DNA of 64,000 bases from contig OX638152.1 in assembly GCA_951804945.1 (NCBI GenBank), positions 63,922,001-63,986,000 on the forward strand. Direction: 5' to 3'. Below are positions 8,877-63,938 of this stretch, piece after piece. The stretch comes from Podarcis cretensis (Eukaryota). Below the pieces are notes generated by a model that saw nothing but the letters and a program-made list of their open reading frames with translations, was not told where the DNA came from and searched no databases. The position numbers were made by a program, and so were the translations under genes. Numbering within the stretch: position 1 is the stretch's first letter; every line of letters begins with the position of its first letter.

Positions 8877-9729
8877 CATTATGCATCAGTGACTTGTCTG
8901 GAGGGAGGTCAGGTAAGCCACCACTGCTGTTACTCTGGTTGCTCCTTTTCAGTTTGGCTCCATGCATTTACCAGGCAATTCTTTTGAGAGCAATTCTTTG
9001 CGTAAATTTGAAAAGAGCAATTATCAAGGTAGTTAACAGTGATAAATATCACTCCTCAACTTCTCATCACCTCCCAAAATAGATGAATATCTCCATTATG
9101 GTATCCTGCAATGCCAAACTATCCAGCCACTGGAAATGATTGTGTCAGAAATAAGTTGTCTGATTCCATATTTTGAATTCAACATTGTCCTAGAAATAAT
9201 TAGTTTTCAACCAGCTACATCACAAGTGCAATAGCAGCTTATGAACATTCTCACTATTGGCCCCAAAACAAATACTAAAGTGTTTCATATTCTGACCAAT
9301 ACTGATATACAAATGTAAATTTCAGTAGTTTTTCTTATAGTATCCTACAAATCCAGATATGTGTTCAAATTTGCGGTGCTAAAATAGCAGACATTCTGCC
9401 CAGCACATTCACTTTAGTTTGCATACATAGCTTCCTGCACTCCATTCATGGCGCCAGAAGATGTTACTTATCTATCCAGTGTGGATGTTTCTATGGAACA
9501 CTGCTAATCACTGATAAAAAGAGATCTGAATCAAAGTTTAAAGTGGACTCCCCCCCCCCCAAAAAAAAAAAAAACCTTACAACTCAATCAGTGGAATTCA
9601 ATGTAACATTTAGGAGACTGTTCCATCAGTGCAAGCATTTCTGCTGGCCCTCTGGAGGATCTCCCACCCTTCCAGAGCAGATTTGGGAAGAGGCTGGGGA
9701 GTCATTTTTGCACTAGCAAGAGTTGTTCC

Positions 9730-12700
9730 CCCCTTCATGAATCACTGCCTTGCCGTGGCGAAGGGGCTTGAAGAACTCAGAGAAGCTATGAACTATGCCG
9801 AGCAGGGCACCCAGGATGAACAGGTCATAGTGGAGAGTTTTGACCAAACGTGATCCACCTGGAGGAGGAACTGGCAAGCCACTCCAGTATCCCTGCCAAG
9901 AAAACTCCATGGACAAAGACAACAGGCATATAAAAGTTATGACGCTGGAAGATGAGCCCCTCAGGTCAGAAGTCGTCCAACATGCTACTGGGGAAGAGCG
10001 GAGGGCAAGTACAAGTAGATCCAGAGCTGATGAAGCGGCTGGGCCAAAGCCGAAAGGACGCTCAGTTGCGGATATGCCTGGAAGCGAAAGGAAAGTCCAA
10101 TGCTGTAAAGAAAAATATTGCATAGGAACCTGGAATGTAAGAACCATGAACATGGGTAAGTTGGAGGTGGTCAAAAATGAGATGGCAAGAATAAATATTG
10201 ACATCCTGGGCATCAGTGAACTAAAATGGACGGGAATGGGTGAATTCAGTTCGGATGACCATCATATCTACTACTGTGGGCAAGAAACCCGTAAAAGAAA
10301 TGGAGTGGCCCTCATAGTCAACAAAAGAGTGGCAAAAGCTGTACTGGGATGCAATCTCAAAAATGATAGAATGATCTTGATACGAATCCAAGGCAGACCT
10401 TTTAACATCACAGTAATCCAAGTTTATGCACCAACTACTGGTGCTGAAGAAACTGAAATTGACCAATTCTATGAAGACTTACAACACCTTATAGAAGTGA
10501 CACCAAAGAAGGATGTTCTTCTCATTATAGGGGATTGGAATGCTAAAGTAGGGAGTCAAGAGATAAAAGGAACAACTGGCAAGTTTGGCCTTGGAGATCA
10601 AAATGAAGCAGGGCAAAGGCTAATAGAGTTCTGTCAAGAGAACAAGCTGGTCATCACAAACACGCTTTTCCAACAACACAAGAGACGACTCTACACATGG
10701 ACATCACCAGATGGGCAGCATCGAAATCAGATTGATTATATTCTCTGCAGCCAAAGATGGAGAAGCTCTATACAGTCAGCAAAAACAAGACCTGGAGCTG
10801 ACTGTGGCTCAGATCATCAGCTTCTTATAGCAAAATTCAAGCTTAAACTGAAGAAAGTAGGAAAAACCACTGGGCCGGTAAGATACAATCTAAGTCAAAT
10901 CCCTTATGAATACACAGTGGAAGTGAGGAACAGGTTTAAGGATTTAGATTTGGTGGACAGAGTGCCTGAAGAACTATGGATGGAGGCTCGTAACATTATA
11001 CAGGAGGCAGCAACGAAAACCATCCCAATGAAAAGGAAATGCAAGAAAGCAAAGTGGCTGTCCAATGAGGCCTTACAAATAGCGGGGGAGAGAAGGCAAG
11101 CAAAATGCAAGGGAGATCGTGAAACATACAGGAAATTGAATGCAGATTTCCAAAGAATAGCAAGGAGAGACAAGAAGACCTTCTTAAACAAGCAATGCAA
11201 AGAAATAGAGGAAAGCAATAGAATGGGAAGAACCAGAGATCTGTTCAAGAAAATTGGAGATATGAAAGGAACATTTCGTACAAAGATTTCCATAATAAAG
11301 GACAAAAGTGGAAAGGACCTAACAGAAGCAGAAGACATCAAGAAGAGGTGGCAAGAATACACAGAGGAATTATACCAGAAAGAAATGGATGTCTCATATA
11401 CCCCAGGTAGTGTGGTTGCTGACCTTGAGCCAGACATCCTGGAGAGTGAAGTCAAATGGGCCTTAGAAAGCACTGCAAATAACAAGGCCAGTGGAAGTGA
11501 TGGTATTCCAGCTGAACTATTTAAAATTTTAAAAGATGATGCTGTTAAGGTGCTACACTCAATATGCCAGCAAGTTTGGAAAACTCAGCAGTGGCCAGAA
11601 GATTGGAGAAGATCAGTCTACATCCCAATCCCAAAGAAGGGCAGTGCCAAAGAATGCTCCAACTATCGCACCATTGCACTAATTTCTCACGCTAGCAAGG
11701 TTATGCTTAAAATTCTACAAGGAAGGCTCAAGCAGTATGTGGACCGAGAACTCCCAGAAGTGCAAGCTGGATTTAGAAGAGGCAGAGGAACCAGAGACCA
11801 AATTGCAAACATGCGCTGGATTATGGAGAAAGCTAGAGAGTTCCAGAAAGACATTTACTTCTGCTTCATTGACTATGCAAAAGCCTTTGACTGTGTCGAC
11901 CATGGCAAACTATGGCAAGTTCTTAAAGAAATGGGAGTGCCTGATCACCTCATCTGTCTCCTGAGAAATCTCTATGTGGGACAAGAAGCTACAGTTAGAA
12001 CTGGATATGGAACAACTGACTGGTTCAAAATTGGGAAAGGAGTACGACAAGGCTGCATTTTGTCTCCCTGCTTATTTAACTTATATGCAGAATTCATCAT
12101 GCGAAAGGCTGGGCTGGATGAATCCCTAGCCGGAATTAAGATTGCCGGAAGAAATATCAACAACCTCAGATATGCAGATGACACAACCTTGATGGCAGAA
12201 AGTGAGGAGGAATTAAAGAACCTTTTACTGAGGGTGAAAGAGGAGAGTGCAAAATATGGTCTGAAGCTCAACATCAAAAAAACGAAGATCATGGCTACTG
12301 GTCCCATCACCTCCTGGCAAATAGAAGGGGAAGAAATGGAGGCAGTGAGAGATTTTACTTTCTTGGGCTCCATGATCACTGCAGATGGTGACAGCAGCCA
12401 CGAAATTAAAAGACGCCTGCTTCTTGGGAGAAGGGCAATGACAGGCCTAGACAGCATCTTGAGAAGTAGAGACATCACCTTGCCAACAAAGGTCCGTATA
12501 GTTAAAGCTATGGTTTTCCCAGTAGTGATGTATGGAAGTGAGAGCTGGACCATCAAGAAGGCTGATCGCCGAAGAATTGATGCTTTTGAATTATGGTGCT
12601 GGAGGAGACTCTTGAGAGTCCCATGGACTGCAAGAAGATCAAACCTCTCCATTCTGAAGGAAATCAGCCCTGAGTGCTCACTGGAAGGACAGATTGTGAA

Positions 12701-12950
12701 GCTGAGGCTCCAGTACTTTGGCCACCTCATGAGAAGAGAAGACTCCCTGGAGAAGACCCTGATGTTGGGAAAGATGGAGGGCACAAGGAGAAGGGGGCGA
12801 CAGAGGACGAGATGGTTGGATAGTGTTTTCGAGGTTACCAGCATGAGTCTGACCAAGCTGCGGGGGGCAGTGGAGGACAGGAGTGCCTGGCGTTCTCTGG
12901 TCCATGGGGTCACGAAGAGTCGGACACGACTAAACGACTAAACAACAACA
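9730..12950 (+). mobile_element. Full-length RTE/BovB LINE, copy 1
   Basis: BovB-type 5' UTR (cccttcatgaatcactgccttg...), single EN-RT ORF, 3' end ggggtcacgaagagtcggacacgactaaacgactaaa(CAA)n. 12-bp TSD AAGAGTTGTTCC at 9718-9729 and 12951-12962. Confidence 0.96.
9909..12941 (+). CDS. BovB-type APE endonuclease / reverse transcriptase polyprotein (intact)
   Basis: Uninterrupted ORF; first in-frame ATG at 9909 (the ORF track starts at TTG 9840). EN motifs GTWNV, LGISE, GDWNA, IDYI, SDH. RT motifs YRTIAL, QAGFR, FIDYAKAFD, GVRQGCILSP, YADD, FLGS. Confidence 0.95.
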   Translation: MDKDNRHIKVMTLEDEPLRSEVVQHATGEERRASTSRSRADEAAGPKPKGRSVADMPGSERKVQCCKEKYCIGTWNVRTMNMGKLEVVKNEMARINIDILGISELKWTGMGEFSSDDHHIYYCGQETRKRNGVALIVNKRVAKAVLGCNLKNDRMILIRIQGRPFNITVIQVYAPTTGAEETEIDQFYEDLQHLIEVTPKKDVLLIIGDWNAKVGSQEIKGTTGKFGLGDQNEAGQRLIEFCQENKLVITNTLFQQHKRRLYTWTSPDGQHRNQIDYILCSQRWRSSIQSAKTRPGADCGSDHQLLIAKFKLKLKKVGKTTGPVRYNLSQIPYEYTVEVRNRFKDLDLVDRVPEELWMEARNIIQEAATKTIPMKRKCKKAKWLSNEALQIAGERRQAKCKGDRETYRKLNADFQRIARRDKKTFLNKQCKEIEESNRMGRTRDLFKKIGDMKGTFRTKISIIKDKSGKDLTEAEDIKKRWQEYTEELYQKEMDVSYTPGSVVADLEPDILESEVKWALESTANNKASGSDGIPAELFKILKDDAVKVLHSICQQVWKTQQWPEDWRRSVYIPIPKKGSAKECSNYRTIALISHASKVMLKILQGRLKQYVDRELPEVQAGFRRGRGTRDQIANMRWIMEKAREFQKDIYFCFIDYAKAFDCVDHGKLWQVLKEMGVPDHLICLLRNLYVGQEATVRTGYGTTDWFKIGKGVRQGCILSPCLFNLYAEFIMRKAGLDESLAGIKIAGRNINNLRYADDTTLMAESEEELKNLLLRVKEESAKYGLKLNIKKTKIMATGPITSWQIEGEEMEAVRDFTFLGSMITADGDSSHEIKRRLLLGRRAMTGLDSILRSRDITLPTKVRIVKAMVFPVVMYGSESWTIKKADRRRIDAFELWCWRRLLRVPWTARRSNLSILKEISPECSLEGQIVKLRLQYFGHLMRREDSLEKTLMLGKMEGTRRRGRQRTRWLDSVFEVTSMSLTKLRGAVEDRSAWRSLVHGVTKSRTRLND

Positions 12951-13972
12951 AAGAGTTGTTCCACTGGTTTCCACAAATGCAACCATGTAGTTGAATCTAG
13001 CCCATAGTTTTTAATTAATTTTTAATTACACTTAGCCTTCCTTAGATTGTGCTCTTGATCTGTATTATTCATAGTATAACAATTTTATTGATAAAATCAT
13101 TTTTTATGTAAGTTGATTAGTAAAGATGCAGAAGTGCAAATGTTTCACATCAGCTGTATTTGCTAATAACACATCTGGATTGACCTATTAAAAGGACATA
13201 ATCTCAGATTAGAACCCATTTTTAAATGTTTAATGTAAAATTACATTAATTATTATTCACCATTATTTTTTGTAGCCAGAAGGGAAATTCCATCTCATTA
13301 TGGAGTAAAACAGTTAGACAGGTATGGTGTAAGAGGGGATGTTTATTTACACAAAGCTGGTTGGATAAAGGCGATAAGAACAGGAGATAAGAGTTAAGGA
13401 ATGGGATTAAGCTGAGAGTATACACTAAGAGTGAAAAGATACAAAATTTAAAAAGAAGAAATGCAAGCAAGAAATAAAGGGAAGAAAGGAGAGAAATGGT
13501 CTAGGGAAAGACATAATGACAGAGTGGGGGAGATAACATAAGGGAGTGAAGTTGTGGATGGAAGAGAAAAACACAGTGGTAACTGGTGCCCATTGGGATG
13601 GGTTAGGGCACCACAGCCAATGGTGATTTAGCAAAAGCCAATGGTAGGCAGAGTGAGATCTACTGGCAGGTGGAAAAAACCAATTCTGATTCTGTCCCCT
13701 TATTTTCAATTGCAGAGATATGAAGAACACTTAACTACTTCAATACAAATTCTCAATGTCTAACTGAATTTTAAAATAGCCTCTTACCTTGCTTCAAGAC
13801 CTTTCTGTGCCATTGCTGGCTACACTCTGCTGGGAAAACAGCCACTCCTATCCTCCATTCATACCACCCACAACAGGTTGAGAAATATTAGGTTTTGTTT
13901 GGGACATAGTGGCATGGGCATCTGTTTGTTCAGATCACACAGCACTCTCCTCCTCAAAGCATACCTTCTAAT

Positions 13973-14057
13973 AGGTAAAGGACCCCTGGATGGTTAAGTC
14001 CAGTCAAAGGCGACTATGGGGTGCAGTGCTCATCTCGCTTTTCAGGCCGAGAGAGCC
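13973..14057 (-). mobile_element. Sauria SINE 3' fragment
   Basis: ggtaaaggacccctg...ctcatctcgctt, the same tail as the full copies in this window. Confidence 0.75.
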
Positions 14058-14171
14058 CACATTTTATATTCTGAACAATACTGATATACAAATGTAAGTT
14101 TCAGTAGTTTTTCTTATAGTATACTACAACATCCAGAACTAGGTTTCTACTGATACCACAAATTTCAAATA

Positions 14172-14481
14172 CAGTTGTACCTCGGTTTACAAACTTAATC
14201 CGTTCTGGAAGTCCGTTCCTAAACCAAAACTGTTCTTAAACTGAGGCACGTTCTGGTACTTCCGGGTTTAGTGCAGTGCACATCCTGAAATCGCACAACC
14301 CAAAGCATCTGTAACCCAAGGTATGACTGTATATTGATTGGTGTTCACCCCTCTTCCACCGTTCAGATTCCGTTCTCAGACCAAGGTAAAGTTCTCAAAC
14401 CAAGACACCATTTCCCGTTTTGCCGAGTTCGTAAACCAAATCGTTCTTTAACTGAACTGTTCTTAAACCGAGGTACCACTG
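14172..14481. mobile_element. Tc1/mariner (Tigger-like) MITE, possibly composite
   Basis: TA|CAGTTGTACCTCGG...CCGAGGTACCACTG|TA, plus an internal TIR-like end near 14313-14331. Confidence 0.8.
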
Positions 14482-15608
14482 TAGAACTAGAAATGTAGAA
14501 AACTGTACAGTGATGAAACAAATCAGATTTCCTATTTAATATTAGAAGATAAGTACAAATTTTCTTTACTTAATAACGTCTAATGTACCATCTTCTTTTG
14601 ATGTGCAGCTAATAGGAGGGTGTCGAGATATAAGCTACCAGAACTGTTAAAAAAAAATCAGTAACAAATGAAAAGTCAAAAGAAAGTACAGCTCTTTAGG
14701 GAAACTAAAAAATGAGCTGAAAATACATTGAACATATGTTATATGCCAGAAGATGCTACTTATCTATCCAGTGTTGATGTTTCTATGGAACACTTCTAAT
14801 CATTGATAAAAATGTGACATGGGCATATGGAAGGCCGATGGAGATCTGAATCAAAGTTTAAAATGGGCATCTCCTCCCCAAAAAAACTTTGTCCACAGAC
14901 AGCTTTCTGGGTCATGTGGCCAGCATGACTAAACTGCTTCTGCAGACCTTTACCTGTGTACCTTATACTGGGGGTGGGGGGGAGAGAACAGATTGGCGTC
15001 TCAAATTCCAGCAGTTTCCTTTGCGATGCCAAAATTCAGTGCCCCTCCACCTCTCGCACTCCATTCTAAATCATAGTTGCTGTGTCTGTGGTGGCTCTGG
15101 CCTTTCTGGCTCTGTCACAACCCCTCACTGGTTCAGGTAACTTATTGCAAACATTGTTGTTCTGCTTTCAACAAAGCTAACCCACACCAACCAACCCAGC
15201 AGAGACACCGCCATGCTAGCTATCATGTGCTCTGATTGTCAGGGGTGAAGGGGAAAGAGTTGTATGCAGACGCTGCTGTTCACAGTTTGCATGTGGGGAG
15301 GAAGGCTAACAACAATTTTGCATATATTCAATAACTAAGAAAGGCTTTGGAATTTAAAATGGGGGTTTTGAGTTTTGGGTTTCCCTGTGCAATTCTTTTT
15401 TTTTAATGCTGAAAATTATTTATTTAAAAAGTTACACCATGCTCTTCTTTAATAGAAACCAGATGGAAACAACTAATCATACCTACCACAAAACAATAGT
15501 AAACCAGTTTATTTTTAACAGCAGCATAATAAAACAGCTGTTTTAATCCAGAAAGCAACATTCAATATATGCAAACTGGGGAAGAAATACCCCAAATGAA
15601 ACAGGAGG

Positions 15609-15610
<2 letters not shown>

Positions 15611-15644
<34 letters not shown>
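15611..15644. repeat. (GT)n microsatellite
   Basis: GT run. Confidence 0.97.
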
Positions 15645-15647
<3 letters not shown>

Positions 15648-17368
15648 GCATATGAAAAGTATTCAGATTGGGGCTTGGTCAACTTCCGGGGGTGGGGGTG
15701 GTGGCATTCCACAGCATTTCAACAACATAAAAAGTCCTATGCCTTGTTGTTGATTCTCATTAATTTGAGGCATTATATATCTACAAATTTAATGGAAGTA
15801 GTAATGATGTATATAGATTGTAGCAACAGAACAGTGTGACCTGAGCACAGCCTGAAATGAAAATAAAATGGACACAGTCATGAAAGTGCTGAATCTCTTT
15901 TCTTAGCAGTTTCAGGTATTTCTTATAGTTTCATTGGTGACCAACTGGCAGATAAGCATTGATTCAAACAGGTAGTGCAGGATGTAATCAGGCTAGGCCT
16001 GGTGCGCACATGGTGCTTCCCTACAGGAGTGTTTTCAGGTCCATGTTATCATATCACAAGATTATCATTTGAATCAAGCCTACACTGTGAATACTCTGTA
16101 AATATGAGAAACACTTGTTGAAACTTTCTGCTTCAATAAAGTTTACTTGAATGCACTCCCATGCATGTTCAAATGACCCACTGTATTGAATAAGGCTTAC
16201 TCCCCGGTATGTACACGTAGGACTGTAGCCTTAGAGAGGTGCAGAATCATCTTCACAAACGTTGACAATCCTTCAAAAAATATTCTTTATTTCCTACAAA
16301 ACTTCCACAGCTACCTCTTCTAAATAAATTTTCATATTTTGCTCAAGGTAAAAACTTCTGGCAACTCTTGTATTAGGTTCTATGAACTTTATCCAGTTTG
16401 TGGAAGGTATTCTTTTCAACCTTGGATTGGCAGCTGGGTGGTCACCATTACTCATGATTTCCACTGTAATGCCATCCCTAACAAAATTTGCTAGCATTGT
16501 TGGCATTCCTGTACAGTGGTACCTTGGGTTAAGTTCTTAATTTGTTCTGGAGGTCTGCTCTTAACCTGAGACTGTTCTTAACCTGAAGCACCACTTTAGC
16601 TAATGGGGCCTCCTGCTGCCACAGCGCCGCCGGAGCATGATTTCTGTTCTTATCCTGAATCAAAGTTCTTAACGTGAAGCACTATTTCTTCTTTTTAAAA
16701 AAATAATTTTTATTAACAAGCCAATCAAATCACATTAATTCCAAATCACATTAGTTCCAAATTATACAGCCAAAATTTTAAAATTTTGTTGGGGGTACCC
16801 ATAGTTCGAGCTCCGAAAGGGATCCAAACATCACTCTTGCTACTGCTTTAATTACACAGTTCTGTCCAGTTCTGTCCAGATAGTCTCTTTGTTATTTTCC
16901 TCATCTTCTTGTTGTTATCATATATTCCTTTCTTTGTGATCTCTGATAATCTTCACAAGCGGGTTGAAAATAAACATATCCTGTGTGGATTTTACACTCT
17001 CCAAGAGCCATATCACATAAAGGACAGACGCCATTTCCACACCTCCGTAAAGAACATTCCCACAGTCTGTCCGTTGATTTCCACAGGCTTGCCAATCTGT
17101 ATCTCAGGGGGCCCTGCCAGGTCAAATTCACATTCCAATAACCTTGCATTCACATTCCAATGACCATGGTCCTCCTCCCCCTCATCCTCCTGTGGGCAGG
17201 CCTGTCTTAACGAATCTCCATTTTGTAACTGCGTCACAAAGCTTTCTTTACATTCCCGATGATTCCCACCAGTCCTCTCTTTGATCAGTAATTCATTTCC
17301 ACACAGTTCTTAATCTCCTGCTTGTGATTAGTAATTTGCAATGATTCTTTCTCTCTCTCCTTAGGATT

Positions 17369-20300
17369 GTTGTTGTTGTTGTTTAGTCGTTTAGTCGTGT
17401 CCGACTCTTCGTGACCCCATGGACCAGAGAACGCCAGGCACTCCTGTCCTCCACTGCCCCCCGCAGCTTGGTCAGACTCATGCTGGTAACCTCGAAAACA
17501 CTATCCAACCATCTCGTCCTCTGTCGCCCCCTTCTCCTTGTGCCCTCCATCTTTCCCAACATCAGGGTCTTCTCCAGGGAGTCTTCTCTTCTCATGAGGT
17601 GGCCAAAGTACTGGAGCCTCAGCTTCACAATCTGTCCTTCCAGTGAGCACTCAGGGCTGATTTCCTTCAGAATGGAGAGGTTTGATCTTCTTGCAGTCCA
17701 TGGGACTCTCAAGAGTCTCCTCCAGCACCATAATTCAAAAGCATCAATTCTTCGGCGATCAGCCTTCTTTATGGTCCAGCTCTCACTTCCATACATCACT
17801 ACTGGGAAAACCATAGCTTTAACTATACGGACCTTTGTTGGCAAGGTGATGTCTCTACTTCTCAAGATGCTGTCTAGGCCTGTCATTGCCCTTCTCCCAA
17901 GAAGCAGGCGTCTTTTAATTTCATGGCTGCTGTCACCATCTGCAGTGATCATGGAGCCCAAGAAAGTAAAATCTCTCACTGCCTCCATTTCTTCCCCTTC
18001 TATTTGCCAGGAGGTGATGGGACCAGTAGCCATGATCTTCGTTTTTTTGATGTTGAGCTTCAGACCATATTTTGCACTCTCCTCTTTCACCCTCAATAAA
18101 AGGTTCTTTAATTCCTCCTCACTTTCTGCCATCAAGGTTGTGTCATCTGCATATCTGAGGTTGTTGATATTTCTTCCGGCAATCTTAATTCCGGCTAGGG
18201 ATTCATCCAGCCCAGCCTTTCGCATGATGAATTCTGCATATAAGTTAAATAAGCAGGGAGACAAAATGCAGCCTTGTCGTACTCCTTTCCCAATTTTGAA
18301 CCAGTCAGTTGTTCCATATCCAGTTCTAACTGTAGCTTCTTGTCCCACATACAGATTTCTCAGGAGACAGATGAGGTGATCAGGCACTCCCATTTCTTTA
18401 AGAACTTGCCATAGTTTGCCATGGTCGACACAGTCAAAGGCTTTTGCATAGTCAATGAAGCAGAAGTAAATGTCTTTCTGGAACTCTCTAGCTTTCTCCA
18501 TAATCCAGCGCATGTTTGCAATTTGGTCTCTGGTTCCTCTGCCTCTTCTAAATCCAGCTTGCACTTCTGGGAGTTCTCGGTCCACATACTGCTTGAGCCT
18601 TCCTTGTAGAATTTTAAGCATAACCTTGCTAGCGTGAGAAATTAGTGCAATTGTGCGATAGTTGGAGCATTCTTTGGCACTGCCCTTCTTTGGGATTGGG
18701 ATGTAGACTGATCTTCTCCAATCTTCTGGCCACTGCTGAGTTTTCCAAACTTGCTGGCATATTGAGTGTAGCACCTTAACAGCATCATCTTTTAAAATTT
18801 TAAATAGTTCAGCTGGAATACCATCACTTCCACTGGCCTTGTTATTTGCAGTGCTTTCTAAGGCCCATTTGACTTCACTCTCCAGGATGTCTGGCTCAAG
18901 GTCAGCAACCACACTACCTGGGGTATATGAGACATCCGTTTCTTTCTGGTATAATTCCTCTGTGTATTCTTGCCACCTCTTCTTGATGTCTTCTGCTTCT
19001 GTTAGGTCCTTTCCACTTTTGTCCTTTATTATGGAAATCTTTGTACGAAATGTTCCTTTCATATCTCCAATTTTCTTGAACAGATCTCTGGTTCTTCCCA
19101 TTCTATTGCTTTCCTCTATTTCTTTGCATTGCTTGTTTAAGAAGGTCTTCTTGTCTCTCCTTGCTATTCTTTGGAAATCTGCATTCAATTTCCTGTATGT
19201 TTCACGATCTCCCTTGCATTTTGCTTGCCTTCTCTCCCCCGCTATTTGTAAGGCCTCATTGGACAGCCACTTTGCTTTCTTGCATTTCCTTTTCATTGGG
19301 ATGGTTTTCGTTGCTGCCTCCTGTATAATGTTACGAGCCTCCATCCATAGTTCTTCAGGCACTCTGTCCACCAAATCTAAATCCTTAAACCTGTTCCTCA
19401 CTTCCACTGTGTATTCATAAGGGATTTGACTTAGATTGTATCTTACCGGCCCAGGGGTTTTTCCTACTTTCTTCAGTTTAAGCTTGAATTTTGCTATAAG
19501 AAGCTGATGATCTGAGCCACAGTCAGCTCCAGGTCTTGTTTTTGCTGACTGTATAGAGCTTCTCCATCTTTGGCTGCAGAGAATATAATCAATCTGATTT
19601 CGATGCTGCCCATCTGGTGATGTCCATGTGTAGAGTCGTCTCTTGTGTTGTTGGAAAAGCGTGTTTGTGATGACCAGCTTGTTCTCTTGACAGAACTCTA
19701 TTAGCCTTTGCCCTGCTTCGTTTTGATCTCCAAGGCCAAACTTGCCAGTTGTTCCTTTTATCTCTTGACTCCCTACTTTAGCATTCCAATCCCCTATAAT
19801 GAGAAGAACATCCTTCTTTGGTGTCACTTCTATAAGGTGTTGTAAGTCTTCATAGAATTGGTCAATTTCAGTTTCTTCAGCACCAGTAGTTGGTGCATAA
19901 ACTTGGATTACTGTGATGTTAAAAGGTCTGCCTTGGATTCGTATCGAGATCATTCTATCATTTTTGAGATTGCATCCCAGTACAGCTTTTGCCACTCTTT
20001 TGTTGACTATGAGGGCCACTCCATTTCTTTTACGGGTTTCTTGCCCACAGTAGTAGATATGATGGTCATCCGAACTGAATTCACCCATTCCCGTCCATTT
20101 TAGTTCACTGATGCCCAGGATGTCAATATTTATTCTTGCCATCTCATTTTTGACCACCTCCAACTTACCCAGGTTCATGGTTCTTACATTCCAGGTTCCT
20201 ATGCAATATTTTTCTTTACAGCATTGGACTTTCCTTTCGCTTCCAGGCATATCCGCAACTGAGCGTCCTTTCGGCTTTGGCCCAGCCGCTTCATCAGCTC

Positions 20301-20594
20301 TGGATCTACTTGTACTTGCCCTCCGCTCTTCCCCAGTAGCATGTTGGACGCCTTCCGACCTGAGGGGCTCATCTTCCAGCGTCATAACTTTTATATGCCT
20401 GTTGTCTTTGTCCATGGAGTTTTCTTGGCAGGGATACTGGAGTGGCTTGCCGATTCCTCCTCCAGGTGGATCACGTTTGGTCAAAACTCTCCACTATGAC
20501 CTGTTCATCTTTGGTGCCCTGCTCGGCATAGTTCATAGCTTCTCTGAGTTCTTCAAGCCCCTTCGCCACGGCAAGGCAGTGATCCATGAAGGGG
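17369..20594 (-). mobile_element. Full-length RTE/BovB LINE, copy 2
   Basis: Reverse-complement near-identical to copy 1, with the same 5' start and a (CAA)n tail. 12-bp TSD CTCCTTAGGATT at 17357-17368 and 20595-20606. Confidence 0.96.
17383..20415 (-). CDS. BovB-type APE endonuclease / reverse transcriptase polyprotein (intact)
   Basis: Uninterrupted ORF (track 17383..20484; first ATG 20415). All EN and RT motifs present. Six amino-acid differences from copy 1 over the track ORF. Confidence 0.95.
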   Translation of the reverse strand: MDKDNRHIKVMTLEDEPLRSEGVQHATGEERRASTSRSRADEAAGPKPKGRSVADMPGSERKVQCCKEKYCIGTWNVRTMNLGKLEVVKNEMARINIDILGISELKWTGMGEFSSDDHHIYYCGQETRKRNGVALIVNKRVAKAVLGCNLKNDRMISIRIQGRPFNITVIQVYAPTTGAEETEIDQFYEDLQHLIEVTPKKDVLLIIGDWNAKVGSQEIKGTTGKFGLGDQNEAGQRLIEFCQENKLVITNTLFQQHKRRLYTWTSPDGQHRNQIDYILCSQRWRSSIQSAKTRPGADCGSDHQLLIAKFKLKLKKVGKTPGPVRYNLSQIPYEYTVEVRNRFKDLDLVDRVPEELWMEARNIIQEAATKTIPMKRKCKKAKWLSNEALQIAGERRQAKCKGDRETYRKLNADFQRIARRDKKTFLNKQCKEIEESNRMGRTRDLFKKIGDMKGTFRTKISIIKDKSGKDLTEAEDIKKRWQEYTEELYQKETDVSYTPGSVVADLEPDILESEVKWALESTANNKASGSDGIPAELFKILKDDAVKVLHSICQQVWKTQQWPEDWRRSVYIPIPKKGSAKECSNYRTIALISHASKVMLKILQGRLKQYVDRELPEVQAGFRRGRGTRDQIANMRWIMEKAREFQKDIYFCFIDYAKAFDCVDHGKLWQVLKEMGVPDHLICLLRNLYVGQEATVRTGYGTTDWFKIGKGVRQGCILSPCLFNLYAEFIMRKAGLDESLAGIKIAGRNINNLRYADDTTLMAESEEELKNLLLRVKEESAKYGLKLNIKKTKIMATGPITSWQIEGEEMEAVRDFTFLGSMITADGDSSHEIKRRLLLGRRAMTGLDSILRSRDITLPTKVRIVKAMVFPVVMYGSESWTIKKADRRRIDAFELWCWRRLLRVPWTARRSNLSILKEISPECSLEGQIVKLRLQYFGHLMRREDSLEKTLMLGKMEGTRRRGRQRTRWLDSVFEVTSMSLTKLRGAVEDRSAWRSLVHGVTKSRTRLND

Positions 20595-22207
20595 CTCCTT
20601 AGGATTACTGGGTACCAAAAAAAGAAAAGTTTTTTCCTCCCCCCCTTTCCGTTTTGCTCCGACATACCGATCTTTTAATGATGAGTCTTCACTTAATTTA
20701 TTGTCCAGCCGGTCGCTCCGCATCACAGAGATCCCATTAATCAGCAGTCTTTACTCCCGATCTTCACTTGAAGTATGTGCATTTGCTTCTTTTTCCAATT
20801 ATATATTTCGAGCTGATGCAAACCAGTGCACGATTAGAGACAGCGTCCGGGAGAGCCGACCCCACCTGAGGGCTTCGTGCCTAGTGCCCACACCCCCTTC
20901 TTTCGAATCCGGGGGTGAATTATGGGCACAGCAGGCAAGGCAGTACCCCCCATTCCCTTGGGGGGCAAGGGAGGCTGCATACTCCCATATCAGCCTCTTA
21001 ATTACCTCGTGTGGCTCGGAGAGATGTTATTGTCGGCCATCTTCCAATGCGCGCCCTGGTGGCCCCCAGCACTATTTCTGGCTTAGTGGAGTGTGTAACC
21101 TAAACCGTATGTAACCTGAAGCGTATGTAACCCGAGGTACCACTGTACGTTTTTCTCAGATGCACATTTCTTTCAGGATGGTGCAGCAGCTAAGTCAAGT
21201 TTTAGTTTAGTGTGCCATCCAAACCCAAGTTTTCATAACCATAATAGTTCATCTCTCTCCTCTTTACCCATAACCCGCAAGCAAGCGTAACACTAAGCCA
21301 TAGTTTAGCTTAGCATTATATGTGAATTCAGTTATTCTTGTGGGGTTGGGGTGGGATATCATTATTTATTTTGTATGTTTCCACCTTATTGAAATAAACT
21401 TTCAGTCTTTTCCATAGTCTTTGATGAGACTTAATCAATACAATTTATTAGTCCAAACATCTAACAGCTGCCTACTTATTTGTTGGTAGTTTCATTTTTT
21501 AAAAAAATAATAAATAAATTATAAATTACTGGCAATTGGAGCTATAAGAGCAACTTAGCTGTACAGCAATCTGCTGTGGCCGGTGGAGTTACGTTAGTTT
21601 ACCTAGAAATATTGAGATATATCTAGAAGCTGCACTATTTGAACTGCTATAACATTTCCTACCAAAGGATGCTAGACTGCATGCAGCATGTGTGCATTTC
21701 TCTGTCATTTATTTCCTTAAAAGCAAAGGTCAGCACATAGAAAATTTACAACATAAAGGGTCCAATTACTGGTACAAGACACCTACCACATCAGCAGAAG
21801 TGTCAAGCATCATATACTTCTATAAGCTGATTAATCCAATGCAGTGCAGCAATAGGCAGTACTTAGCTCTTGCAGATTTCCCCCAGCAGCTACTGCAAAC
21901 ATTGCACTTACAGAAGTCATATATTTATCTGAAACATCCAGCATAAAACAAATCTTCTCAGACAGCAACAAATTTGAACCTCTTCTTACATTATTTCCTA
22001 TGGAACCCTGTATGATGGCAGTACTATGCTGAATCCTTTGCCTCCGCACCCGAAAGAAGACTCAGGACAACTTATAATTATCTGCAGGGAGAATCAATTG
22101 TTACTAAAGAGAGAAGCATTGCCCTCACACACATGGGCTTGTAAGGCGGCTTAGCCAAGGACTGGAAGAAAATTCTCCCTCCTAGCTAAATGAGGATTGG
22201 GTAAAAT

Positions 22208-32703: not shown

Positions 32704-33046
32704 AGGGACCCCTGACCATTAGGTCCAGTTGTGACCGCCACTGGGGTTGCGGCGCTCATCTCGCTTTATTGGCCAAGGGAGCCGGCGTACAGCTTCCGGG
32801 TCATGTGGCCAGCATGACTAAGCCGCTTCTGGCGAACCAGAGCAGCGCACAGAAACGCCATTTACCTTCCCACCGGAGCAGTACCTATTTATCTACTTGC
32901 ATTTTGATGTGCTTTTGAACTGCTAGGTGGGCAGGAGCAGGGACCAAGCAACAGGAGCTCACCCCGTCGCGGGGATTCAAACCGCCAACCTTCTGATCGG
33001 CAAGTCCTAGGCTCTGTGGTTTAACCCACAGCGCCACCCACGTCCC
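32704..33046 (-). mobile_element. Sauria SINE (near full length)
   Basis: Minus-strand head GGGACGTGGGTGGCGCTGTGGGTTAAACC, body aagtagataaataggtac, tail ...ggtcaggggtccct. Confidence 0.92.
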
Positions 33047-34251
33047 TCTTTATTTAAATATATATTAACATTAAAGGGACCTTATGTTGAAACCTCCACT
33101 ACATATCAGGTCTCTATCCTGCCCCCTTGTTGTCTTCTCTGTTAAGCCCTCCTAATGGCTTGCCATTTTTTGCACGCCGAAGCCTCTCTTCTTCTGTTCA
33201 TGGCCCCTTGTTCATGGCCTAGTCCTTCATTTATGTCTCTTCTTTTGACCATAAGGTTTTGCTTCCCCATTAGTATGTGCTGTGCCACCTCCACCCTGAT
33301 CTGATGCTTCCTTTCCATGTGGCAGCTCATTTGCAGTTACTGTATACTTTGTCCAGTGATGATGGATGGCTATAGCCAACTGGTAATTGATTTAGTAGAG
33401 GAGACAAGAATATGGTCCAGTTCTTCTCCAGGTCAGGGAACATACCAAGCCCTACCTAGAAATGCCAGAGATTAAATCTTCTGTGTGCAACACAGATGTT
33501 CTGCTGCTGACCAATGGCCCTTCCCCATATTAAGGATATGTGGCCCAACTCACCTGCGTTCAAATACACTGTTGCCTGTGTTTCTGAAAAATAATTAAGC
33601 ATAATGATCAAGAAGTGGCCCATGTAAGAAAGGTAGTGTCAGGCTATTCTGATGATGGGGAAATTAAATCCATTTACCTTTGCAGAGGGAAAATGGTTAT
33701 GAGAGATATTTAAGGTGGCTTAAATCATTCAGCTTTTTTCAGTAGCTGTCAACAACAAAGACATTAAGACTTCATTTGCAAGCTTTATCTTTAATGTAAA
33801 ATGGCAGCAATTGACATTTAAGAATTGTCTGGTAGAATGCCTTGCATTATACAGGCGAAATCCAGGAAGTGCTAATGCTGAATGAATAGTCAACATCTTT
33901 CATCTGTCACCATCCAACAATTAGTTCTTGTTTACAAAATAGATGGCCCACCTGATCTTACCTTCCCAGTTTCTGATTTTATCCTGGAATGTCCCACTTT
34001 TCCTTAGGACATCCCTATTTTCTTCTGAGAAATATTAGAGGGTATGGAGTTATCCGACCCCTGAACTGTCTGAAGGCAGCCTGTATAAGGGTTTTTTAAA
34101 ATAAAAAAAATAAGTTTATTGGCATAAATGTATAATGTTTTATTTTGTTTTTAAATTTGTTGGAAGCAACCCAGTCAGATGCGCAGGGTATAAATAGTAA
34201 AATTATTATAGTTGTTGTTGTTGTGGAATAGGACACCCCTAAATTCATCAA

Positions 34252-34598
34252 GGGAAGTGGGTGGCGCTGTGGTCTAAACCACTGAGCCTAGGGCTTGCCG
34301 ATCGGAAGGTCAGCAGTTTAAATCCCTGTGACGGGGTGAGCTCCCATTGCTTGGTCCCAGCTCCTGCCAACCTAGCAGTTAAAAAGCACGTCAAAAAGCA
34401 AGTAGATAAATAGGTACTGCTCCGGCGGGAAGGTAAACAGCATTTCCGTGCGCTGTTCTGGCTTCACCAGAAGCGGGTTAGACATGCTGGCCAGAAAAAC
34501 TGTCTGCAGACAAACATCGGCTCCCTCAGCCAGTAAAGCGAGATGAGCGCTGCAACCCCAGAGCCGTTCACAACTGTTAGGGGTCCTTTACCTTTTTA
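34252..34598 (+). mobile_element. Sauria SINE (full length)
   Basis: tRNA-like head, conserved body, TTTACC-type tail. 13-bp TSD CCTAAATTCATCA at 34238-34250 and 34599-34611. Confidence 0.93.
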
Positions 34599-44183: not shown

Positions 44184-44533
44184 TAAAGGTAAAGGGACCC
44201 CTGACCGTTAAGTCCACTCGTGGATGATTCTGGGGTTGCGGCACTCATCTCGCTTTATTGGCCGAGGGAGCCGGCGTACAGCTTCTGGGTCATGTGGCCA
44301 GCATGACTAAGCCACTTCTGGCAAACCAGAGCAGTGCACGGAAACGCCATTTACCTTCCCGCCGGAGTGGTACCTATTTATCTACTTGCACTTTGACGTG
44401 CTTTTGAACTGCTAGGTTGGCAGGAACAGAGACCGAGCAACAGGAGCTCACCCCGTCGTGGGAATTCGAACCGCCGACCTTCTGATCAGCAAGTCCTAGG
44501 CTCTGTGGTTTAACCCACAGCGCTACCCACGTC
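44184..44533 (-). mobile_element. Sauria SINE (full length)
   Basis: Same structure as the other copies, with (GGTAAA)n tail on +. Confidence 0.92.
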
Positions 44534-50771: not shown

Positions 50772-51138
50772 GGTAAAAGGTAAAGGTACCCCTGCCCATA
50801 CAGGCCAGTCGTGTCCGACTCTAGGGTTGTGCGCCCATCTCACTTAAGAGGCCGAGGGCCAGCATTGTCCGGAGACAGTTCTGGGTCACGTGGCCAGCGT
50901 GATGAAGCTGCTCTGGCGAGCCAGCACCAGCGCAGCACACGGAAATGCTGTTTACCTTCCCGCTATAAAGCGGTACCTATTTATCTACTTGCACTTAGGG
51001 GTGCTTTCAAACTGCTAGGTGGGCAGGAGCTGGGACCGAAAGACAGGAGCTCACCCCGCCGCGGGGATTCGAACTGCCGACCATACGATCGGCAAGTCCT
51101 AGGCACTGAGGTTTTACCCACAGTGCCCCCTGCGTCCC
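50772..51138 (-). mobile_element. Sauria SINE, distinct subfamily
   Basis: Full head and body with a divergent 3' half. TSD AAGGACCATAAA at 50760-50771 and 51148-51159. Confidence 0.9.
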
Positions 51139-51289
51139 TAAGGACCTAAGGACCATAAAACTGCGCCCTAAAATCCTTTCAAAGTGCTATATTTTGTGAA
51201 CACAGACTTTTGCAGACTGATTTCAAAAGAGTGGCTTGATTTGTAGGCATCTGTTGTGATCAGACTAGTACAGACTTTGATTGACATAC

Positions 51290-63200: not shown

Positions 63201-63596
63201 TTCATCAAATATTCTGCAGCTTCCTCTAAAATACAGATGTTAAAGATTTTTTAAAAATAGGCTTACCAAACTACTGCTGGCTCCAAAGTTAGTGAGCAAG
63301 TGAGGTTTCAAACAAAATTTCTGGAAACAATATGAACTCTGATAAGCTGGTGATGAAGAATGAGAGGGGGGGTCTTAAAATGTAATTTTATTCATGCTAC
63401 TCAGAGGTTGTGGTGGGGGATAAGATCAGGTCACCTTTTATTTTCCTGTCTATCTAATCAGCACTTCCCCAAACAATGCATGAAACTCCTTCAAAAGTTG
63501 CACTATGCCACATTTTGTGAGTCTGTTGTCCAACACACACACCCCAACCAAGTATGTACAGAAGGGTTTATATTAAGGGGAAGTATGAATAAAAGC

Positions 63597-63938
63597 GGGT
63601 GCGCTGTGAGTTAAACCACAGAGCCTAGGACTTGCTGATCAGAAGGTCAGCGGTTCAAATCCCCGCAACGGGGTGAGCTCCCGTTGCTCGGTCCCTGCTC
63701 CTGCCAACCTAGCAGTTCAAAAGCACCTCAAAGTGCAAGTAGATAAATAGGTACCACTGCGGTGGGAAGGTAAGTGGCATTTCCGTGCGCTGCTCTGGTT
63801 TGCCAGAAGCGGCTTAGTCATGCTGGCCACATGACCCGGAAGCTGCATGCTGGCTCCCTCGGCCACTAAAGCGAGATGAGCGCCGCAACCCCAGAGTCGG
63901 TCACGACTGGACCTAATGGTCAGGGGTCCCTTTACCTG
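63597..63938 (+). mobile_element. Sauria SINE (near full length)
   Basis: Complete body and tail ccagagtcggtcacgactggacctaatggtcaggggtccctttacc. TSD TGAATAAAAGC at 63586-63596 and 63939-63949. Confidence 0.93.

Follow-up and report, generated by a model that had tools for sequence, protein, structure and literature searches.

The BovB elements of ruminants and squamates belong to the RTE clade and have been horizontally transferred (PMC6036668, PMC6050309, PMC9007160), and as described in the parts of these papers drawn on here they resemble the elements of the present study in having a single open reading frame (ORF) for endonuclease (EN) and reverse transcriptase (RT). In Podarcis muralis, the family is named Bov-B_PMu (Nakatsuka and Ohshima 2026, PMC13295347). 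According to the sections of that paper compared here, Bov-B_PMu and the family in Podarcis cretensis have in common a (CAA)n 3' tail (given in Table 4 for Podarcis BovB), a target site duplication (TSD) that starts with A and has a T-run about 10 nt upstream, and a 5' C-run about 12 nt after the TSD start. Both genomes hold hundreds of full-length copies, 353 of them with TSDs in P. muralis, where mean pairwise divergence is 3.0%, whereas many full-length copies here lie about 0.4% from their column majority. Open-ORF counts and pair orientation, absent from the compared parts of PMC13295347, are given below. A second comparison is offered by inverted pairs of Alu elements, which, as reported in the parts of PMC3215922 (Cook et al. 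2011) and PMC10164571 (Ait Saada et al. 2023) used here, are likewise chance inverted repeats of high-copy retro-insertions with a mild excess of direct pairs. In contrast to these, the BovB arms have ten times the length and an identity of 99.5%, and their 4.4-kb spacer lies far outside the tens of bases over which unstable Alu inverted repeats show strong exclusion (PMC10164571).

Within the window, the 64,000 nucleotides of contig OX638152.1 that were analysed, self-comparison by BLAST returned a single inverted match, between 9730-12951 and 20594-17373, spanning 3222 bp at 99.47% identity with 17 mismatches and no gaps. It corresponds to two full-length elements arranged tail-to-tail, namely copy A (9730..12950, plus strand, 3221 bp), with a C-run start and a (CAA)n tail, and copy B (17369..20594, minus strand, 3226 bp), with a longer CAA tail. 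The spacer (12951..17368; 4418 bp, both inner TSDs included) is made up of unique DNA, several pieces of high-copy repeats and the 3' part of an element that hosts copy B, and it carries six AATAAA motifs per strand against about 3.5 expected. The longest tracts identical between the copies are 516 and 396 bp, and homology stops at the element ends. This inverted repeat is far beyond random sequence similarity. An earlier sequence-only reading had described two near-identical full-length BovB elements converging over a 4.4-kb spacer, with about 17 substitutions counted by eye; the bounds and orientation are confirmed, and the exact count over the 3222 bp is 17.

The same reading had taken both EN-RT ORFs to be uninterrupted, as they prove to be. 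From stop to stop, 1036 codons are open in copy A (9831-12941, plus strand) and in copy B (20493-17383, minus strand), and the copy A ORF (9909..12941, plus strand) encodes 1010 aa from its first in-frame ATG. Exo_endo_phos and RVT_1 domains (PF03372, PF14529, PF00078) are present in the frame of copy A, the copy that was scanned, so that one long ORF codes for an AP-type endonuclease and a reverse transcriptase, as is characteristic of BovB. As in other Podarcis BovB, both copies end in a (CAA)n microsatellite rather than poly(A), and both begin with a C-run after a TSD of about 12 nt starting with A. A P. muralis UniRef cluster with 178 members matches the protein at 95% identity across 99% of the protein, and identity is 92% to Zootoca, in comparison to 75-77% for Bos RT-type ORFs and 61-79% for Varanus ORFs. 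The source records of these matches carry no BovB label, and the name BovB follows in part PMC13295347. Domains, tail, TSD form and protein identity to lacertids and ruminants agree with the assignment of both elements to BovB. There is no sign of a new horizontal transfer among the protein matches, the closest named relatives being other lacertids (92-96%).

Copy A is flanked by AAGAGTTGTTCC at 9718..9729 and again at 12951..12962 (both plus strand), while copy B, on the minus strand, is flanked by CTCCTTAGGATT (plus-strand letters) at 17357..17368 on its 3' side and 20595..20606 on its 5' side. Both TSDs are 12 nt long and start with A on the element strand, and they differ from each other. 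Since each copy has its own 12-bp TSD pair, A and B are independent insertions, as had been proposed. Examination of 30 full-length copies allowed 23 TSDs to be called, and 22 of these start with A. The Tn-TA target signature, a T-run roughly 10 nt upstream and a T before the first A, is complete at copy B, where the T is preceded by a T7 run ending 11 nt upstream; copy A has a Tn-TA-like site with a T5 run 9-13 nt upstream, but with C in place of T before the first A. As TTT occurs in the upstream T-run zone in 6/23 other copies, this part of the signature is a tendency.

The element interrupted by copy B is older, multi-copy and about 1.15 kb long. Its 3' part (16690..17356, minus strand) has an AATAAA (16714), an A-rich tail and the TSD AGCACTATTTCT (16678-16689), and its 5' part (20607..21067, minus strand), with best paralogs 93-96% identical, is flanked by the second TSD copy at 21068-21079. 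A first look yielded 1984 candidate paralogs, and the two halves are contiguous in all 11 examined. The element is probably L1-like and non-autonomous. In it, a 10-bp deletion appears to have brought a T-run to within one helical turn of a T|A step, the target that BovB prefers, and copy B inserted there. Neither the pairing of the TSDs nor the host element, which is collinear, shows a net inversion, which bears out the view that the spacer has not been flipped. So far nothing indicates inversion or deletion at the locus.

These junctions bear on the possibility that the pair is an assembly artefact, with one copy placed twice or the spacer misoriented. In its favour, no contig of X1, X2, X3 or X5 covers the junction of copy B, but two distinct TSD pairs, private changes in each copy, the joined halves of the split element in its paralogs and the presence of the copy A 3' junction in run X2 make such an artefact scarcely credible. 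It is also extremely unlikely that one copy arose from the other, by local inverted duplication or a local hop, or that gene conversion homogenised the arms. The long identical tracts would suit such an origin, as would the 17 differences, which place the pair among the closest 12% of young pairs (31 of 253 as close or closer). However, measured against the column majority of 23 young full-length copies, A departs at 11 sites and B at six, with none in common, and each copy is nearer to the family majority than to the other; the different TSDs and the end of homology at the element ends argue in the same direction. As no derived change is common to A and B, nothing points to duplication or conversion, and that origin is largely refuted, with short conversion tracts without markers being possible. 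The difference in private changes suggests that copy A is probably older than copy B, with upper-bound ages of about 2 Myr and 1 Myr, respectively, at a rate derived from Table 2 of PMC13295347. Five of the 11 changes in A lie within 234 bp towards its 5' end (scan p=0.035); this clustering was rejected as a special feature, as 4/23 other copies are tighter.

Genome-wide, the exact 5'-terminal 23-mer has 1,716 matches (341+296+316+405+358), a 5' 44-mer has 914 and a 3' 37-mer has 3,979. End-to-end alignment was obtained in 20 of 30 sampled 44-mer matches and an ORF of at least 1000 aa in nine, and the lower-bound estimates are about 610 full-length copies and about 270 (135-450) with an open ORF. 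Pairwise differences among the 23 young full-length copies have a median of 25 bases (253 pairs), and two young copies only 5 bases apart exist. Because young copies differ by so little, the likeness of A and B is typical of the family rather than special to the pair. Among distinct coding variants, 92 of 240 are synonymous against 63.2 expected from the spectrum (z=4.4). This synonymous excess, together with copies 5 bases apart, supports recent activity of the family, and to that extent the suggestion that it is currently or recently active.

Under random placement of about 600-730 full-length copies per genome, 0.54-0.78 full-length inverted pairs with a spacer of at most 4421 bp are expected, 0.27-0.39 of them tail-to-tail, and 1.2-1.8 inverted pairs within 10 kb. 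For the strict case, in which both ORFs are open and the copies stand tail-to-tail across at most 4.4 kb, the expectation is 0.055-0.079, or about 0.1 with clustering (a factor of about 1.3, from 65 pairs within 100 kb against 49 expected), under criteria chosen after the pair was seen. A second full-length inverted pair is found at C3:6,862,308-6,881,499 (3215-bp arms, 96.9% identity, 12.8-kb spacer, one open ORF), and an inverted pair on C2 has 2.9-kb arms at 99.1% identity, 32 kb apart. Though no other full-length inverted pair examined in the 336 Mb of C1-C3 and the window is as tight or as identical as A and B, chance could produce their arrangement at the copy number of the family. The idea that such a pair is unexpected is at best weakly supported, with 0.5-0.8 expected per genome, a second pair on C3 and depletion of inverted pairs that is mild at most.

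The best explanation, to which we assign a probability of about 0.85, is that two insertions, made separately by retrotransposition during a large recent burst, happened to land near each other, and that the pair is likely without a function of its own. Chance is the most likely cause, since several hundred young full-length copies are estimated to reside in the genome. Each copy would have been inserted at a Tn-TA site by target-primed reverse transcription, the two stemming from different source copies, and a function of the pair would be made unnecessary by the chance explanation. The pair is real, but it is an ordinary consequence of a large and recent burst of lacertid BovB.

Alternatively, close full-length inverted BovB pairs could be purged by instability, leaving A and B as a young, still polymorphic survivor that is being lost and a hotspot of inversion or deletion, a reading considered unlikely. 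In the 336 Mb covered by pair-orientation counts (406 of the 1,716 matches, 22% of the genome), there is a mild surplus of direct pairs up to 100 kb apart, with 41 direct and 24 inverted of 65 (p=0.046) after removal of duplications and 53/77 direct with duplications kept. The 12 pairs left out either belong to a cluster of five copies at C2:125.58-125.66 Mb, which was taken to be a duplication and in which one pair was aligned, or involve C1:88.9 kb. In the newly covered region, 24/42 pairs are direct and 18/42 inverted (p=0.44), and within 25 kb six of nine are direct and three inverted (p=0.51). Strong depletion, initially suggested by 8/8 direct pairs under 100 kb among the first 100 matches listed (p=0.008), one of them a segmental duplication, did not replicate and was rejected in view of the newly covered region and of a 3'-motif list with 18/38 direct. 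Depletion of inverted BovB pairs is at most mild.

Comparative data, as far as the two Alu papers were drawn on, point both ways. In human, the depletion of inverted Alu pairs extends to 350 kb (PMC3215922), and repeats with wide spacing lose their stability when the DNA is single-stranded (PMC10164571). However, instability in duplex DNA falls steeply with the spacer, about 40-fold from 12 to 20 bp (PMC10164571), and after clique adjustment Alu pairs have an I:D ratio of 0.955 overall and of 0.989 at 7.4-50 kb (PMC3215922). The A and B arms match the high identity of unstable Alu repeats (99.47%), but their 4418-bp spacer is not the tens of bases that permit a cruciform, and cruciform extrusion in duplex DNA would not be expected. 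The older full-length pair still present on C3 and the lack of net inversion at the locus also stand against purging, while rare inversion by ectopic recombination, or fold-back of single-stranded DNA, could still use the pair as a substrate. For copy A there is a hint of polymorphism, in that a contig of X1 begins exactly at the TSD (12951), whereas the X2 contig containing the 3' junction enters the tail by 23 bases. From contig coordinates only, X1 may hold two alleles at copy A, and organism B (X5) would fit an empty A site; the joint table for copy A is swamped by other BovB copies. At copy B, positions 20599-20610 (junction or empty site) are covered by no contig of X1, X2, X3 or X5, a gap that carries no evidence.

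The sequence also raises the possibility that a spanning or intronic transcript folds into a 3.2-kb duplex, whose endo-siRNAs or edited RNA would silence BovB in trans to a measurable degree. Endo-siRNAs made from hairpins occur in mouse oocytes and, from hpRNA, in Drosophila (PMC5392987), and the loci concerned have long complementary arms in common with A and B. Unlike such loci, the A/B pair, known here from sequence alone, has a 4.4-kb loop with polyA signals. With arms 99.47% complementary over 3222 bp, a spanning RNA would be expected to pair, and promoters may exist, as neither copy has lost its 5' end and B lies downstream of the L1-like 5' part on the same strand. However, a transcript from B would meet the host-element AATAAA (16714) and A-tail about 640 bp past its own tail and then five more AATAAA, and one from A would meet six, the first 510 bp past the TSD. 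This argument is weak because the counts are near chance (3.4-3.6 expected), and the context leans against read-through from B. Scans for a host gene covered 124 of the 127 open stretches of at least 70 aa in the window (the other three overlap BovB ends), 13/13 splice-bounded candidates and 83 of the 148 top candidates from 100 kb on each side (65 being evident transposon frames or their overlaps), and none of these matched Pfam above the cut-off. An intronic position is possible, since short exons would be missed by such scans. Furthermore, about 4,000 young 3' ends already lie on both strands, and in the first 24 Mb of C1 inverted orientation already occurs in three of the 11 closest pairs (arms up to 660 bp), so one more source of dsRNA would add little unless strongly expressed. 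Young copies only 5 bases apart also count against silencing by the pair, which is very unlikely. A narrower proposal, that a polymorphic 3.2-kb hairpin in carriers converts BovB RNA to endo-siRNAs and slows a running burst, is very improbable. If it were true, a vertebrate LINE family would have been observed in the course of making a silencer of itself. Within the titles and abstract openings of the literature searched, with subscription journals outside its scope, neither an inverted BovB pair nor BovB dsRNA was found, and likewise no BovB retrotransposition assay.

In itself the pair matters little, being about what a large young LINE family yields by chance. Should it be polymorphic, of which the contigs give a hint at copy A, the pair would offer a natural experiment on inversion or dsRNA from such repeats. 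The census is a useful by-product, and its synonymous excess points to many active source copies in this lacertid genome, which would lend itself well to a BovB retrotransposition assay and to testing for selection against long inverted repeats.

Self-alignment of the window reveals a single long repeat, in which 9730-12951 matches 20594-17373 in inverted orientation, ungapped over 3222 bp and mismatched at 17 positions. It comprises two BovB copies arranged tail-to-tail across a spacer of 4418 bp: copy A at 9730-12950 (+), with target-site duplications (TSDs) at 9718-9729 and 12951-12962, and copy B at 20594-17369 (-), with TSDs at 20595-20606 and 17357-17368. Each copy carries an uninterrupted 1036-codon frame, and a domain scan of copy A's frame found endonuclease and RT domains. 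Self-alignment and the frame and TSD checks thus confirmed every feature of the sequence-only reading's description of two near-identical inverted copies with open frames, their own TSDs and a ~4.4-kb spacer. Elsewhere in the window, an old local direct duplication flanks copy A on either side (9283-9567 and 14062-14886; blocks of 76 bp at 93%, 68 bp at 94% and 48 bp at 85%). A SINE-like repeat of ~340 bp, which we take to be probably Sauria SINE, occurs five times in both orientations (32704-33047, 34251-34576, 44185-44533, 50776-51139 and 63593-63937; 78-92% alike by self-alignment).

Relative to the family majority, copy A has 11 changed sites and copy B has 6, none of them shared (smaller sets agree); homology between them stops at the element ends, and their TSDs are not alike. 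Judged from sequence, these observations indicate separate insertions, and comparison with the family majority gives no sign of gene conversion between the two. Every TSD still has its matching partner, and the element interrupted by copy B continues collinearly on both sides of it, arguing against a net inversion of the spacer, though two flips, or any even number, would leave no trace. The earlier claims of independent insertion and of an unflipped spacer both hold, the latter for net inversion. The reading we favor, at a probability of about 85%, is that each copy was placed by target-primed insertion from a different source copy, A probably before B, and that the pair has no function.

The host element of copy B (16690-21067, -; parts 16690-17356 and 20607-21067) is an older, multi-copy element of ~1.15 kb with its own 12-bp TSD, a polyA signal, an A-rich tail, ends common to its paralogs and no long ORF; a first look gave 1984 candidates. 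Its halves are contiguous in all 11 paralogs compared (87-96% identical). From the resemblance of its ends, it is presumably L1-like, a non-autonomous L1 derivative, and it sits in a short repeat itself (16511-16677 and 21071-21147). At B's target, 10 bp found in all seven aligned paralogs are absent, so that a T-run lies 11 nt from the T|A step at the start of B's TSD, as in the Tn-TA target preferred by BovB; this deletion may have created the target that B used. Relative to the same paralogs, 20595-20616 also shows a single substitution and, in place of a C-run, six different letters that form a small quasi-palindrome; the deletion and these two changes all apparently predate the insertion of B. 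Searches of the window and of 100 kb to either side turned up no host exon, a weak negative. Two exon-like stretches with good splice signals (L105:1317-1469 and L118:8616-8729, both +) lie ~80 and 100 kb from the pair and gave no Pfam match. Neighboring stretches of C4 (L106-L108, L113-L114, L119) hold many long open transposon frames, labeled by the look of their translations as DIRS/Ngaro-like, L1-like with a 1270-codon frame, and other LINEs.

Copy A can also be followed in short-read contig sets from other samples. In X2 (organism A), a record covering 12928-13773 with 0 differences spans A's tail into the flank, while a record in X1 begins exactly at 12951, as would be expected where filled and empty A alleles merge. 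In X5 (organism B), with 53 differences per 3893 bases of flank, alignment to the window ends at 9717 in one record, which has 125 further letters, and the next record begins at 13046, coordinates that would fit an empty A site with a 30-base overlap. Together, these contig coordinates suggest that copy A is real, species-specific and perhaps polymorphic.

Both copies are new members of a known family, lacertid BovB. A Podarcis muralis protein cluster (178 members) matches their ORF at 95% identity, a protein from Zootoca at 92% and Bos RT-type ORFs at 75-77%, which makes a lacertid lizard the likely host. The copies share a (CAA)n tail, a TSD starting with A, a C-run start and an upstream T-run with Bov-B_PMu as described in an excerpt of PMC13295347. 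A TSD was called in 23 of 30 other full-length copies, starting with A in 22 and measuring 11-12 nt in 19. BovB-like ORFs of 78-79% identity labeled Staphylococcus aureus, Babesia ovata and a bacterium (P0018, P0020, P0044, P0052) are probably host DNA contamination. Exact matches in the 1.508-Gb genome number 1,716 for the 5'-terminal 23-mer, 914 for a 5' UTR 44-mer and 3,979 for a 3' 37-mer. Among 30 of the first 33 listed 44-mer matches, 20 match the element over its full length and 9 contain an ORF of at least 1000 aa, extrapolating to at least about 610 (430-760) full-length and at least about 270 (135-450) open-ORF copies.

Compared pairwise, 23 young full-length copies show a median of 25 base differences, and 31 of the 253 pairs are no further apart than A and B. 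Synonymous changes make up 92 of 240 coding variants against 63.2 expected from the mutation spectrum (z=4.4), an excess suggesting that some of the variation built up within several source lineages as they replicated. Two copies only 5 bases apart, L074 and L081 (C1:33.22 and 44.85 Mb), form a very young sub-lineage; both are intact and have derived changes in common, including one (position 142) that also occurs in copy B. On these two grounds, the proposed recent activity of the family is well supported. If the rate is taken from Table 2 of PMC13295347, as excerpted (9.7% for 61 Myr), A would be at most ~2 Myr old (11 changes) and B ~1 Myr (6). An older full-length layer (L052, L058, L062, L075) is ~96% identical to the young one, and one member keeps a 1034-codon frame. 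Many 5'-intact copies (L043, L044, L045, L076, L099, L083) carry clean internal deletions (for example, 350 to 1934, 404 to 2635, 262 to 2361 and 2094 to 2773), unusual for a LINE mostly truncating at its 5' end; an excerpt of PMC6050309 mentions a BovB from a tick that lacks 1691 nt internally. Five co-oriented 5' ends inside 70 kb at C2:125.58-125.66 Mb are probably an amplified array.

Random placement predicts 0.54-0.78 full-length inverted pairs per genome at spacers up to 4421 bp (0.27-0.39 in tail-to-tail orientation) and 1.2-1.8 when the limit is 10 kb; with both ORFs open and tail-to-tail, the figure is 0.055-0.079, and clustering of BovB copies lifts expected numbers ~1.3-fold. A full-length inverted pair this close is expected, the strict case is roughly a one-in-ten event per such genome under criteria picked after the fact, and the arrangement is ordinary for the BovB copy number. 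Across 336 Mb, with all 406 5'-intact matches there placed, three of nine non-duplicated pairs within 25 kb are inverted. One is a second full-length pair (L087 and L088, C3:6,862,308-6,881,499), head-to-head with 3215-bp arms at 96.9%, a 12.8-kb spacer and an open 1036-codon frame in one copy; the arms of the remaining two are short or deleted. C2 holds a 2.9-kb, 99.1% inverted pair 32 kb apart, and A and B form the tightest and most identical full-length inverted pair among those examined. Literature searches found no published account of such an inverted BovB pair.

The claim that close inverted repeats are under-represented is at best weakly supported here. Direct pairs account for 53 of 77 within 100 kb in the same 336 Mb and 41 of 65 without 12 duplication pairs (p=0.046), but for 24 of 42 in the portion that had played no part in suggesting a depletion (p=0.44). 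Any loss of inverted pairs is thus at most mild, and the same holds for human Alu pairs with kilobase-scale spacers (adjusted ratio 0.955; PMC3215922, in excerpt). In duplex DNA, inverted-repeat instability drops steeply with spacer length, although repeats far apart can still pair by fold-back once the DNA is single-stranded (both from a portion of PMC10164571). The locus is a possible substrate for rare inversion, and it is improbable that the A/B pair is a survivor of a type otherwise purged.

Two target-primed insertions without joint function also remain preferable to a putative dsRNA made from one transcript crossing the 4.4-kb spacer, which we regard as very unlikely. About 640 bp on, a transcript from B would come to the polyA signal of its host element, and one from A would meet an AATAAA at 510 bp; hexamer counts are near chance. 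A self-silencing BovB hairpin formed by the pair would be slightly less probable still. Since the genome already contains short-armed inverted pairs and, on its two strands, thousands of young BovB ends, an extra source of dsRNA would matter to the family only if strongly expressed.
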